From an uncultured Chloroflexia bacterium (lineage in GTDB: Bacteria > Chloroflexota > Anaerolineae > CG2-30-64-16), in NCBI GenBank assembly GCA_963810095.1, contig CAWEMM010000009.1, forward strand, positions 608,001-672,000: a DNA stretch of 64,000 nt, read 5' to 3'. A program made the position numbers and the translations under genes. The notes beneath the pieces are model-generated. The model had not been told where the DNA came from and did not search any database. It saw only the letters and a list, made by a program, of their open reading frames with translations. This document shows, piece after piece, positions 1 to 3,231 of the stretch; the first letter of the stretch is position 1; each line of letters begins with the position of its first letter.

Positions 1-394
1 CATCCGCCGCCGGTTCTTCGATCGGTGTGAACTCTGAACCGATGTCGGGGCGCAGCCGCACGGCCTCGCGCAGGTAGATGTGGCGCACGTCGTAGATCGG
101 GCGCTCGGTATTCCAATGGATCAGCGTGCGGACCGTGCGGGGGAGGCCCTCGTCCGTCTCGATCTCCACTGCGCTGAGCAGCGGCACGTGATGCCAGCCG
201 AACTCGCGGGCCGCCCGCGCGGGAAATGCGGCCGTCAGATCAGGCGTGACCGTGAAGATCGCGCTCGCGACGTCCTCCGGGTTCACGCTGTTGGCAGTGA
301 CGATGGCGGCGAGTAGTTCCTGCGTGGCAGTGAGAATCGCCTCGACGGTGTTGGATTCCACGGTGGTGGCGCCGCGGATGCCTCGAACGGCCAT
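1..394 (-). CDS. aroH: AroH-type chorismate mutase (runs off window start)
   Basis: Manual translation, not in ORF track: MAVRGIRGATTVESNTVEAILTATQELL...SAIFTVTPDLTAAFPARAAREFGWHHVPLL...HWNT...HIYLREAVRLRPD, matching the AroH family pattern; SD AGGAGGAGG upstream. Confidence 0.93.
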   Translation of the reverse strand, partial: MAVRGIRGATTVESNTVEAILTATQELLAAIVTANSVNPEDVASAIFTVTPDLTAAFPARAAREFGWHHVPLLSAVEIETDEGLPRTVRTLIHWNTERPIYDVRHIYLREAVRLRPDIGSEFTPIEEPAAD

Positions 395-473
395 GATGAG
401 ACCTCCTCCTTCTTCGCTGCCTTGTTGGGCGGGTGCACGCAGCGCACACATGAGCCCAACAAGAGGATGAAAT

Positions 474-503
474 AAAAAAAGCGTGGAAGCTGGGCCTCCA
501 CGC
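474..503 (-). terminator. Intrinsic (attenuator) terminator upstream of aroH
   Basis: Minus strand GCGTGGAGG-CCCAG-CTTCCACGC followed by TTTTTTTATT, located between the leader peptide and aroH. Confidence 0.88.
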
Positions 504-530
504 TCGGCTATTCTTGGCTGGACTCTGGCG

Positions 531-632
531 TCATTGCTTCAGCGGCAAACCATCTCCAGCCGGCGGGGGGCAAAGCCGGGGCGGGCTGGAATAATAAAAG
601 AAGAAATAGCGGCTGATCAGCAGAAGACGCAT
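531..632 (-). CDS. Phe/Tyr-rich attenuator leader peptide (33 aa)
   Basis: Manual translation MRLLLISRYFFFYYSSPPRLCPPPAGDGLPLKQ*; six consecutive Tyr/Phe codons in a GC-rich genome, upstream of a terminator and chorismate mutase. Confidence 0.85.
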   Translation of the reverse strand: MRLLLISRYFFFYYSSPPRLCPPPAGDGLPLKQ

Positions 633-693
633 CGGGTTACAACCTCAGTGCGAGTGATGGGTCACGATCAGTACCCGTGACACAAGTGGCGGG

Positions 694-723
694 ATGATAG
701 CACGGCGTTCGCGCAATTGTCAA
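694..723 (-). promoter_or_regulatory. Sigma70-type promoter for leader-aroH
   Basis: TTGACA (723-718), N18, TATCAT (699-694) preceded by TGn (extended -10). Confidence 0.65.
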
Positions 724-851
724 ACCGTCAATACGCGAGGAAGGACAAGTGAACCAATGCTTCACAAATCCGGCACTTAGCGCGCCTTTGATTCTTTAGT
801 TTTTGTGGGTAGAATAAGCGGACCCTTTCAACATGAGCAAAGGAGCGCGTC

Positions 852-1397
852 ATGGCCGTAACTGAAGCGAAACAGAGGATCGTCAACCGAGTGTGGCAGT
901 CGATTGCCACGAGCGGAGTGTCCGTCAGCGCGATTCCGAAAGACCAACTGGATACGCTCGTCGACGCGATTGCCGACGGCGTTCTTGTCGCCATCGATCA
1001 CGAGTTTGAGGAAGCCGGGCTGCCGTCGAGGGGCCTGGCTGCCGAGACGGCGCCCACGCTGGGCGACGAGGAGAAGCTGCTGTGGGAGGGCCGGCCGTTC
1101 CTCTCGCTGGCCACGTACTACCGCATTACCAACCAGCGGGTTCGCGCGCAGTACGGCGTCATCGGCCGCGACTACGACGACATCGAGCTGATCCGCATCC
1201 AGGACCTCGACCGCACGCAGGGCTTGACCGAGCGGATGCTCGGCATCGGGGACATCCACATCATGAGCTCCGATCCGTCGCGCCCCACGATGGTGCTTAA
1301 CAACGTGGCCGACCCCGATCAGGTACACGAAATTTTGCGGAAGGCCATGCTCGAGGCACGTAAGAAGTATCGCTACAGCGTGCAGGAAGAGATGTAG
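852..1397 (+). CDS. Bacterial PH (bPH_2) domain protein
   Basis: EEKLLWEGRP...YRITNQRV...GVIGRDYDDIELIRIQDL...QGLTERMLGIGDI pattern; SD AAGGAG upstream. Confidence 0.8.
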   Translation: MAVTEAKQRIVNRVWQSIATSGVSVSAIPKDQLDTLVDAIADGVLVAIDHEFEEAGLPSRGLAAETAPTLGDEEKLLWEGRPFLSLATYYRITNQRVRAQYGVIGRDYDDIELIRIQDLDRTQGLTERMLGIGDIHIMSSDPSRPTMVLNNVADPDQVHEILRKAMLEARKKYRYSVQEEM

Positions 1398-1443
1398 GAT
1401 TATCCAGCGGGCTCGCGCTCGGGCGAACCGCTAACCCCCACAC

Positions 1444-1493
1444 ACTTCGGGGCTTGCCCTGCACTCAGGTCAGGGCAAACCCCGAAGTCTTTT
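1444..1493 (+). terminator. Long hairpin between convergent genes, likely terminator
   Basis: ACTTCGGGGcTTGCCCTG ... CAGGGCAAaCCCCGAAGT then CTTTT. Confidence 0.6.
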
Positions 1494-1810
1494 CACCGGC
1501 GGTGCGCCGCCATCTCGGGGGCGGCTTCCCCTCCATCCCCCGTGACCCGCACGCACTCGGGTACGCCGACGCATTCGACCGAGATGAGGGAATAACCCCA
1601 ATCCACCAGGCCGCAAAGCAGCCCGGTGAGAGCAGCCTGGTCGGCCACGATGCCGCGCAAGACACTCTTCGGATGTCCGTTCCCGTTGCGAACTTCCTCG
1701 ACGTTGATCCCATCGAAGTAGTCGGCCAGGTTGACCCCTAGCTGGCCCTGCACACAGATCCGATAATCGGCCGGCGCATCCAGCGTCAGCCGCGCATGGT
1801 CCAGATTCAT
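1493..1810 (-). CDS. Conserved hypothetical protein (YxIxVxGxL...DQAALxGLL type)
   Basis: ATG at 1810 with SD GGGGAGAAG; motif YRICVQGQL...LRGIVADQAALTGLL...LISV. Confidence 0.7.
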   Translation of the reverse strand: MNLDHARLTLDAPADYRICVQGQLGVNLADYFDGINVEEVRNGNGHPKSVLRGIVADQAALTGLLCGLVDWGYSLISVECVGVPECVRVTGDGGEAAPEMAAHRR

Positions 1811-1901
1811 CTTCTCCCCTTGCGTTGCGATTTTCACACTACATCAAACATCTACTCTACCCTATCGCAGCCTGCCAATACATGAGAACCGGCTAAGGGC
1901 A

Positions 1902-1930
1902 ATATTAAGCTTTGGTCGTGCCTGTGTCAA
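1902..1930 (-). promoter_or_regulatory. Sigma70-type promoter
   Basis: TTGACA (1930-1925), N17, TAATAT (1907-1902). Confidence 0.65.
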
Positions 1931-2008
1931 CGGAGCAATGGCGTAAAGACGAGAGCTATGCCGGATCAGACTGCTGTTGCATCCGGGAGTGAGCCGTAGG
2001 GTTCAGAC

Positions 2009-2052
2009 GGGCCCGAAACGGACCATCGGAGAGGCCAGTCCGTTTCGGGCCC
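2009..2052. terminator. Perfect 15-bp inverted repeat downstream of the SH3-PD40 gene
   Basis: GGGCCCGAAACGGAC-N14-GTCCGTTTCGGGCCC; no U-tract. Confidence 0.45.
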
Positions 2053-2067
2053 CAGGCGTGCGACCTC

Positions 2068-3231
2068 CTACGGCCGCCACGCCATCTTTTCGAAGAACCA
2101 GAGCGGTAGGACGTCTGCCGAGACCACTTTCGTGACGCCGCTTCCATCCGGCCGCATAGTGTAGATGCCCCACTTGCCATCGCGGTCCGAGCGGAAAGCG
2201 ATCAATTTGCCGTCGGGTGACCAGACGGGCAGGCCGTCACTTTGCGGCGTCGTGGTCAGCCGGGTATTGCCTGATCCATCCCGCTTGATCACGTAAATCT
2301 CGAAGTTGCCGTCCTCCTTCGAAATATAGGCGATCTGTTGGCCATCCGGCGACCAGGCCGGCTGCCCGTCGCCGCCGCCGGTTGTCAGTCGCCGCACTTC
2401 CCCGCTGTCGGGGTTGGTCAGCCAGATCCCGCACGCCCCCCCATTGCAGGCCCGGTAAGCAATCCAGTTGTCGATCGGGCTCCACGCCGGATATTCGCCC
2501 GTTCCCAGCTCGCGCAGGCCATTGCCGTCGGTGTTGATCAGCCAGATGCTGTCGCCGCCCATCAGCGTGAGCCGGTCGCCGCCGGGAGAGAACGAGGGAT
2601 AGGCGCCGCCCTCGATCACCAGCCGTTCGCCGGAGAAGTCGGGAGCGGAGATATACACGCCGGGTTTGTCGCCAACCGCGCCGGGCCAGGCAAAGTATAC
2701 CAACTGCTTGTTGTCGCGCGAGAAGGCCAGCTCCGTCCGCCAGTCGTTGAGCTTGCGGCTCTTGCCGGTCGCGAAGTTGTATTCCCACACCTCCCAGCGC
2801 TTGTCGGCCATGTTGGCAACCGAGTACAGGAGGATGCCCCGCGGTTTGCCGGCGGCCGTTCCGGCCGTTGCAGGCTTGGCTGCGGCGGCAGGCGCTGGCG
2901 GGATATCCTTCACCACCGCCACTTTCCCCAGCCCGCCCTTGATCGTGAGCAGCGACGCGCTGGCCCAGCCGTTCTTGCCACTGAAGCAGCAAAGCTGGAG
3001 CCAGGAACCGTTCTGATTCTTGCCCTTGACGTCGAAGGTCTCGCCCTTTTTGGCAGCGGCGATGACGGGGTAGGTGGATCCGGGGCCGCTCCGCACGTTG
3101 AGACTTGCGCCCTTGACAGTGGCGGTCGGTCCTGCTTGTGCGTTTGCGATGAGCACAGGGGTGAAGAGCAGGACCAGGACCAACGCGAGCCAGATAAGCA
3201 TACCGAGACGTGACTGACTCTTGGCAGACAT
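2068..3231 (-). CDS. Secreted SH3b plus TolB-like (PD40) beta-propeller protein
   Basis: Signal peptide; LNVRSGPGSTYPVI SH3 motif; repeated PxWSPDG motifs. Confidence 0.88.
   Translation of the reverse strand: MSAKSQSRLGMLIWLALVLVLLFTPVLIANAQAGPTATVKGASLNVRSGPGSTYPVIAAAKKGETFDVKGKNQNGSWLQLCCFSGKNGWASASLLTIKGGLGKVAVVKDIPPAPAAAAKPATAGTAAGKPRGILLYSVANMADKRWEVWEYNFATGKSRKLNDWRTELAFSRDNKQLVYFAWPGAVGDKPGVYISAPDFSGERLVIEGGAYPSFSPGGDRLTLMGGDSIWLINTDGNGLRELGTGEYPAWSPIDNWIAYRACNGGACGIWLTNPDSGEVRRLTTGGGDGQPAWSPDGQQIAYISKEDGNFEIYVIKRDGSGNTRLTTTPQSDGLPVWSPDGKLIAFRSDRDGKWGIYTMRPDGSGVTKVVSADVLPLWFFEKMAWRP

Follow-up and report, generated by a model that had tools for sequence, protein, structure and literature searches.

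Leader-peptide attenuation is textbook knowledge in the Proteobacteria and is known in the Actinobacteria; in its trpL paradigm, four RNA segments can pair in three alternative ways (1:2, 2:3, and 3:4). To our knowledge, attenuation is hardly documented in the Chloroflexota, which are mostly uncultured organisms with almost no known gene regulation. Here we describe a putative attenuator from this phylum, located in a 64,000-nt stretch of DNA (the window; contig positions 608001-672000 of the source genome) upstream of an aromatic amino-acid operon that begins with a chorismate mutase gene; titled public records place the clade in the Chloroflexota, class Anaerolineae. The closest precedents are pheL-pheA of Escherichia coli, where the chorismate mutase domain of PheA is of the AroQ type, and the aroR leader of Corynebacterium glutamicum, the work on which is said to be that of Neshat et al. 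in 2014. The pheL leader (Rfam family Phe_leader) is a leader-peptide attenuator before the gene for chorismate mutase-prephenate dehydratase (excerpts of PMC3082878), and aroR (Phe-Tyr-Phe) lies upstream of aroF and acts through ribosome stalling (excerpts of PMC11802643 and PMC7356990). Among the precedents found, aroR is the only mixed phenylalanine/tyrosine (Phe/Tyr) leader that has been tested.

As in pheL, the element in the window has a small open reading frame (ORF) close to the promoter with consecutive codons for the amino acids that the pathway makes, and a gene for chorismate mutase-prephenate dehydratase stands behind an intrinsic terminator; its four predicted segments, with candidate 1:2, 2:3, and 3:4 alternatives, follow the pheL/trpL scheme. 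Several features set it apart. The codons of pheL are for Phe only, whereas those of the Anaerolineae leaders mix Phe and Tyr; the leader, at 28-41 codons, has roughly double the length of pheL and ends beyond region 2; the regulatory codons lie between regions 1 and 2 in most Anaerolineae lineages, not inside region 1; and the chorismate mutase domain is AroH-type (CM_1). No homology to pheL in sequence or structure was found, as a covariance scan of window positions 1-3000 against Rfam, with E-values up to 10, returned six chance-level matches that included no leader family (Phe_leader, His, Leu, Thr, Trp, or leu-phe) and no T-box. The likeness to aroR, whose sequence was not compared, is functional: in both cases a mixed Phe/Tyr leader peptide stands in the position to control an aromatic-pathway operon. 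In aroR, the codons are Phe-Tyr-Phe, and the gene behind them encodes, in an actinobacterium, 3-deoxy-D-arabino-heptulosonate 7-phosphate (DAHP) synthase; the Anaerolineae element has 5-10 Phe/Tyr codons, and its conserved scaffold also occurs with codons for other amino acids.

Judged by its sequence and those of its relatives, the element is very probably a classical ribosome-mediated leader-peptide transcription attenuator. For the full statement, in which the attenuator works as described below and responds to both amino acids, we give a probability of about 0.62; the dual sensing of Phe and Tyr, which we infer, is by itself somewhat more likely than not. A preliminary description, made from the letters of the window, had read the element as a stalling attenuator with mixed Phe/Tyr codons before an AroH-class gene, and the comparative evidence supports this. 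It had also taken such an attenuator to be undescribed in the Chloroflexota, which agrees with the literature searched: no description was found for Chloroflexi or Anaerolinea, with subscription journals outside the scope of the search and earlier computational surveys possibly in existence, and a paper on classical attenuation that names the Chloroflexi only lists the group among those with too few genomes. What is new here is an uncatalogued attenuator of the classical type, together with a corrected account of its wiring.

A Conserved Leader With Mixed Phe and Tyr Codons

All coordinates are window positions, and the element lies on the minus strand, where promoter, Shine-Dalgarno (SD) motif, leader ORF, the Phe/Tyr run within this ORF, terminator, and gene follow one another in this order (Table 1). 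The preliminary description had named a promoter of the form TTGACA-N18-TATCAT (723-694), a 33-aa ORF containing TAT TTC TTC TTT TAT TAT (632..531), and a GC hairpin followed by a T7 tract (505-474), and all of these are present on this strand. The leader ORF starts 60 nt downstream of the -10 box. In the whole 6.1-Mb genome, it is the one and only small ORF that combines at least five Phe/Tyr codons in a stretch of seven with a terminator, and a search for further copies of the terminator motif in the genome gave only this site and one unrelated palindrome. Small ORFs rich in tryptophan, which also appeared in the genome scan, are noise; the one in the window (about 43,988) is within a coding region.

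The same arrangement recurs in related genomes. The AroH domain was matched in 46 of 61 of these, and 30 loci of the window's family were fetched, one of which (L019) was set aside since the contig begins within the gene. The upstream regions of the remaining 29 all contain a small ORF with a Phe/Tyr run followed by a terminator, the pattern that the preliminary description had proposed to look for at orthologs of the gene, and the runs themselves vary (FYFYY, YYYFYF, FSFSFYFYY, and others). Other families of the class contributed 17 further loci: 13 have at least five Phe/Tyr codons in seven, two (L036 and L037) score four and have a terminator, one (L046) is ambiguous, and one (L051), a second aroH paralog, is without the element.

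Among the loci sampled from other phyla, no such leader was seen. A scan across phyla covered the 450 nt upstream of 63 of the 80 aroH loci returned; left out were two loci without upstream sequence and 15 records from Desulfosporosinus, Gemmatimonadaceae, Bacillota, and Syntrophomonadaceae/Syntrophothermus. At least five Phe/Tyr codons in seven occur at 23 of 26 loci labeled Chloroflexota, many of which are from the same genomes as the family and class samples and so are not independent of them, and at none of 37 loci that are unlabeled or from other phyla (maximum, four in seven). Because such an ORF is single in the genome and absent from these 37 loci, chance is not a credible explanation for its position before aroH. 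A covariance model built from 43 elements (R1) extends the distribution: it matches 96 of the 151 genomes sampled from the class (72 of the 112 of high quality), in at least 110 places, and also 12 genomes labeled as belonging to other classes of the phylum, where the matches that were opened have Phe/Tyr leaders before aroH or a DAHP synthase gene.

In each of the 43 loci analyzed there is a homologous leader ORF of 28-41 codons, whose start and stop codons are in frame with the Phe/Tyr run and whose start is ATG in 37. At least two Phe and at least two Tyr codons are present in 38 of the leaders, and two related loci (L040 and L048) have Tyr-only leaders. Four of the six run codons in the window are codons that are rare in this genome. 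TTT makes up 19% of the Phe codons in long ORFs of the window's genome vs. 72% in the 43 leaders, and TAT makes up 25% vs. 67% of the Tyr codons. Outside the run, the peptide is not conserved among leaders.

Predicted Antiterminator Pairing and the Proposed Mechanism

The terminator consists of a 12-pair stem (seven G-C pairs) at 505-479 with a 3-nt loop, followed by a T7 tract (480-474). Its hairpin alone has a predicted energy of -20.9 kcal/mol (z = -5.4), which none of 200 shuffled sequences equaled; over 29 sequences the stem is 91% paired, and its sequence is nearly invariant in the family loci. The preliminary description had pointed to two copies of TCCAGCC flanking one GGCTGGA and suggested that these could pair in mutually exclusive ways. 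The repeats are present, with TCCAGCC at 590-584 and 522-516 and GGCTGGA at 561-555, and both pairings form in folds, but the second of them leaves the terminator stem untouched. In a fold of 470-575, the hairpin of GGCTGGA with the second TCCAGCC forms together with the terminator, and it was therefore rejected as a sufficient antiterminator. The predicted competitor of the terminator is instead the C-rich strand just 5' of GGCTGGA, which pairs with the terminator 5' arm and loop, the GGCTGGA:TCCAGCC hairpin being nested inside.

For the window, this antiterminator duplex (578-557 with 509-491) has a predicted energy of -23.0 kcal/mol in a two-strand calculation, and the same calculation gives -14.9 to -40.2 kcal/mol across 43 of 43 loci. 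Counted from the first base of the final Phe/Tyr codon, the duplex starts after 10-27 nt, which is at, or just past, the edge of a ribosome stalled there. When the stalled state was folded, with a ribosome on the last Phe/Tyr codon and only the RNA made before the terminator 3' arm, the terminator 5' arm paired upstream in the leader at all 29 loci. The nested hairpin is predicted within the antiterminator at 42 of 43 loci, with compensated variants in L026 and L012.

Comparisons among loci support this pairing. Over 35 distinct arms, the antiterminator is more stable with its own partner than with foreign partners (-24.4 vs. -20.2 kcal/mol), and none of 20,000 permutations was as good. In a MAFFT alignment of the 43 sequences, 74.5% of the antiterminator cells are paired, vs. 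30-61% when the partner is slid by one to three columns. Changes on both sides occur in eight of 13 pairs (27 cells), with a covariation score that was reached by none of 500 shuffles. Covariation in the alignment of 29 sequences is moderate (73% of cells paired; score reached by one of 500 shuffles), because the register varies between subgroups. The loop of the terminator is variable, and the complement upstream varies to match. Relatedness of the sequences inflates the permutation and covariation tests, including those for region 1 below, so that these figures are to be taken as support and not as probabilities. In addition, L020 and L022 translate one shared 17-nt stretch of region 2 in different frames (...DAPRRL... 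and ...CPAPAG..., respectively), which argues that region 2 is under selection at the level of RNA.

The C-rich strand has a further consequence for the peptide. In the window's genus, region 2 encodes Pro-Pro-Pro (557-569, leader codons 22-24), a motif whose translation needs elongation factor P (EF-P). As this stretch of RNA is read as APAPAG or DAPRR in other genera, the Pro-Pro-Pro is probably a by-product of the C-rich strand.

Region 1, the candidate anti-antiterminator strand, takes two forms. In most other lineages it lies just 5' of the Phe/Tyr run, resembles the terminator 5' arm, and pairs with region 2, which places the regulatory codons in the loop of the 1:2 hairpin. In the window's genus, a weak 5' copy is present (CAGCCG, 615-610), and the better candidate is the stretch directly after the last Tyr codon (590-575), which pairs with 578-555 in folds. 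The 1:2 duplex also favors its own partners over foreign ones (mean of -23.5 vs. -20.0 kcal/mol; none of 20,000 permutations as good). In either form, a ribosome stalled on the Phe/Tyr codons would be expected to cover region 1 or to sit between regions 1 and 2.

We propose that transcription would start from the 723-694 promoter and that a ribosome would translate the 33-codon leader while RNA polymerase moves on. With plentiful Phe-tRNA and Tyr-tRNA, the ribosome would pass the six Phe/Tyr codons toward the stop codon (533-531), and region 2 (578-555) would be covered, or recaptured by region 1 (590-575). The terminator (505-479 with T7) would form and transcription would end before the operon. 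If either charged tRNA were scarce, the ribosome would stall on the Phe/Tyr codons (608-591) and mask region 1; region 2 would be left free to pair with the terminator 5' arm and loop (509-491) upon their emergence, with the GGCTGGA:TCCAGCC hairpin nested within. The terminator would thereby be blocked, and read-through would reach the genes for chorismate mutase-prephenate dehydratase, DAHP synthase, prephenate dehydrogenase, and 5-enolpyruvylshikimate 3-phosphate (EPSP) synthase. The sequences show the anatomy of the element, its conservation, the covariation of the antiterminator, and the agreement of leader codons with the regulated gene in sister copies; the stalling and the kinetics are what we infer.

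Several results weigh against this switch, or against parts of it. In the window's genus, 30, 29, and 52 of 100 shuffled versions of the C-rich leader equaled the antiterminator duplex (L003, L006, and L007; 30 for the window's own sequence), and the 1:2 duplex of the window was matched by 18 of 100; because these duplexes are no better than those of shuffled sequences, the wiring at the window locus rests on homology with other loci. Among 35 representatives, the antiterminator duplex beat 95 of 100 shuffles in 25 and did not in 10. At equilibrium, the fold that contains the terminator is the minimum-energy fold of 33 of 43 stalled and 41 of 43 ribosome-free transcripts, and hence the antiterminator must act kinetically, as in the textbook cases. 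The leader stop in the window is 24 nt past region 2, so that a terminating ribosome would melt or cover the nested hairpin and not region 2. By a crude measure, region 1 is mostly within the footprint of the stalled ribosome at only 20 of 43 loci. Lastly, an SD-like 4-mer precedes the start codon, as chosen automatically, in 25 of the 43 leaders.

The detection of SD-like motifs in only 25 of 43 leaders would also suit a switch that is run by an RNA-binding protein, an uncharged tRNA (in the manner of a T-box), or a small ligand, with the ORF being incidental. Alternative RNA structures are by themselves no proof of a role for the ribosome, and sequence conservation is unusually high in region 2 and the terminator arm, as it might be in a site for a protein or ligand. 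Such a switch is nevertheless very improbable: the in-frame placement of the run in 43 of 43 loci and its enrichment in rare codons speak for translation, no T-box or other family was matched in the Rfam scan, and the codon type of sister copies changes with the regulated gene, a change for which a fixed ligand or protein offers no explanation.

Sister Copies and the Regulated Functions

Some genomes have two or three matches to R1, and 18 such matches were opened. The copies have the terminator arm and the region-2 pairing in common, and those opened match the model from end to end with E-values from 1e-7 to 1e-13. Extra copies before a DAHP synthase gene alone, or before prephenate dehydratase and DAHP synthase genes, have Phe/Tyr leaders, and other copies differ in their codons. 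A Tyr-only leader precedes a gene for a fusion of a B3_4 domain with tyrosyl-tRNA synthetase (TyrRS; L148, G099:C32), and Tyr-rich leaders, for example with six Tyr codons in a row, precede Liv-type ATP-binding cassette (ABC) transporter genes (L137, L138, L142, and L143, in G092 and G046); L144 is grouped with L137/L143 among the scaffold copies with other leader codons. A TTTT leader is found before genes for aspartokinase and aspartate-semialdehyde dehydrogenase (asd; L145, G162:C81), and a HIHSHSHHH leader before the histidinol dehydrogenase gene (hisD; L146, G080:C211). For two copies (L133 and L147), Pfam named no gene downstream. These sequences suggest that the codon type of the leader follows the regulated function on one shared scaffold, which fits codon sensing.

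A separate leader with His codons was observed in the window's own genome (G000:C12, about 632,160-632,340 on the minus strand; L132, 3040-3180). Its ORF, MTFIHHHSHWGGRTA, has a TTGACA / TAGACT promoter and a hairpin with a T6 tract, and lies upstream of a gene of the histidyl-tRNA synthetase (HisRS) family (hisZ-like) and hisG. As a His-codon leader and terminator precede hisZ-like and hisG, this organism appears to use the attenuation mechanism elsewhere too.

At the window locus, the regulated gene encodes a 414-aa fusion that, in the genome, comprises CM_1 (2e-43), PDT (2.3e-64), and ACT (1.7e-6) domains. The preliminary description had called it aroH; it does begin with an AroH-type CM_1 domain, but it is a CM_1-PDT-ACT fusion and not a plain aroH. 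This architecture, AroH fused to prephenate dehydratase and ACT, is that of the window's family, where the frames have 277-548 aa in all but one of the full-length matches, while most other families of the class have aroH alone (131-223 aa) and keep the same leader. After the fusion gene, on the same strand, the operon continues with a DAHP synthase that has a ferredoxin-like domain, prephenate dehydrogenase, and EPSP synthase. By these annotations, the operon spans the entry step, a step of the common pathway, and the branch point, together with the branches to Phe and to Tyr. Because the operon serves both branches, a mixed Phe/Tyr signal would be sensible. The EPSP synthase gene is split into two overlapping ORFs (L002, 5714-7085, just outside the window) that cover profile positions 2-215 and 216-417; this split is a frameshift, either real or an assembly error.

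For the sensing of both amino acids, the tested precedent is unfavorable. In C. glutamicum, aroF transcription was raised under Phe limitation, and Tyr availability was without effect on it although the aroR leader has the order Phe-Tyr-Phe (excerpts of PMC11802643). The same attenuator could thus effectively sense one amino acid, most likely Phe, with the other codons as filler or fine-tuning; the first gene of the operon encodes a Phe-branch enzyme, and the Tyr-only leaders L040 and L048 indicate that the mix is not obligatory. We consider this version unlikely, given that 38 of 43 leaders keep both kinds of codon in at least two copies, that Tyr-only runs occur before TyrRS, so that codon identity tracks the regulated function, and that the operon also holds DAHP synthase and the Tyr-branch enzyme prephenate dehydrogenase. 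Sensing of both Phe and Tyr remains the reading that we prefer.

More tentatively, and with somewhat less than even confidence, the copies can be read as one ancestral scaffold that was re-coded many times within the Chloroflexota (for Phe and Tyr, Tyr, Thr, and His), with the mixed Phe/Tyr run acting as a true OR gate. In this scaffold, region 1 would mimic the terminator 5' arm, region 2 would mimic its 3' arm, and the nested hairpin would hold the stop codon. Only the loop codons between regions 1 and 2 would have been swapped, in copies placed before biosynthetic operons, a tRNA synthetase gene, and amino-acid ABC transporter genes.

Layout of the Locus and Implications

The attenuator region is a 457-bp divergent intergenic region between a gene with a bPH_2 domain (852-1397, plus strand) and the gene that starts at ATG 394 on the minus strand (Table 1). 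The promoter agrees with the consensus at 11 of 12 positions, with an 18-nt spacer and a TG extension of the -10 box, and its position suggests that transcription would start near 687. It is one of four promoter-like sites in 3 kb (vs. 0.5 expected). Between the terminator and the start codon is a spacer of 85 nt, which varies widely among relatives in length and sequence. Directly after the stop codon of the bPH_2 gene there is a near-perfect long inverted repeat (1444-1488, plus strand), which surfaced only as chance Rfam matches; it is possibly the terminator of that gene, though the T tract behind it is weak.

Table 1. Features of the leader region, in window coordinates.
Feature	Position	Strand	Basis and remarks
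-35 hexamer, TTGACA	718..723	-	Promoter scan; same relative place in relatives
Extended -10 element, TG (702-701) and TATCAT (699-694)	694..702	-	Promoter scan; extended -10 boxes likewise placed in relatives
SD-like motif, GAGG	643..646	-	Read from sequence; 10 nt upstream of leader ATG
Leader ORF, 33 codons, peptide MRLLLISRYFFFYYSSPPRLCPPPAGDGLPLKQ	531..632	-	Translation; ATG at 632, TGA stop at 533-531
Regulatory codons 9-14, TAT TTC TTC TTT TAT TAT (YFFFYY)	591..608	-	Six consecutive Phe/Tyr codons
Region 1, candidate anti-antiterminator strand: first TCCAGCC and the following CGCCCCGGC	575..590	-	Folds of 506-600 and of full length; pairs with region 2
Region 2, C-rich 5' strand of the predicted antiterminator (578-557), overlapping GGCTGGA (561-555)	555..578	-	Duplex prediction, covariation
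Second TCCAGCC, 3' strand of the nested hairpin	516..522	-	Fold; pairs with GGCTGGA, leader stop in its loop
Region 3, 3' strand of the predicted antiterminator: 4-nt flank, terminator 5' arm (505-494), and loop (493-491)	491..509	-	Duplex prediction, covariation
Region 4, terminator 3' arm (490-479) and T7 tract (480-474)	474..490	-	Terminator scan, fold
Spacer hairpin, 10 bp (463-454 with 430-421), 23-nt loop	421..463	-	Read from sequence; between terminator and gene SD, not conserved
Gene SD GGAGGAGG (about 410-402), ATG (394-392), and first 131 codons of the fusion gene	2..410	-	Continues past the window start

Promoter, ORF, and terminator form a complete unit, and a 85-nt spacer with its own hairpin parts this unit from the gene, as would be expected of an independent small gene or small RNA next to an aromatic operon that is transcribed separately. 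Among the contigs of relatives, one of 176 nt is confined to 470-631, the block that spans leader ORF and terminator, plus 6-8 further letters on either side; its run is labeled RNA-Seq but is probably DNA. The wider set of Logan contigs from relatives comprises small shares of 13 runs, of which four that were examined cover 470-635 and 300-408, and two contigs from a metatranscriptome run extend from the terminator into the start of aroH across a spacer that differs from that of the window, a weak indication of joint transcription, as contigs cannot show 3' ends. An independent unit is hardly credible in view of the remaining evidence. The scan of 3 kb found no promoter-like site between the terminator and the gene start, and no gene in the intergenic region other than the aromatic one needs a terminator there. 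Beyond the Phe/Tyr run the peptide shows no conservation, two reading frames are used across region 2, and the unit is always found directly upstream of genes for aromatic or other amino acids, on the same strand.

As an attenuator of the aromatic operon, the element would be a class-wide regulatory signal for aromatic amino-acid synthesis in the Anaerolineae, mechanistically unsurprising, and an RNA family, so far uncatalogued, that Rfam and genome annotation could add. If the OR-gate reading is true, the mixed run would integrate two amino-acid signals on a branch-point operon, a capacity that has been shown for no attenuator tested to date. The series of leaders with different codons on the same scaffold may offer a system for studying how attenuator specificity evolves and how mixed codons integrate signals, and the most interesting lead is that the scaffold also occurs with codons for other amino acids.

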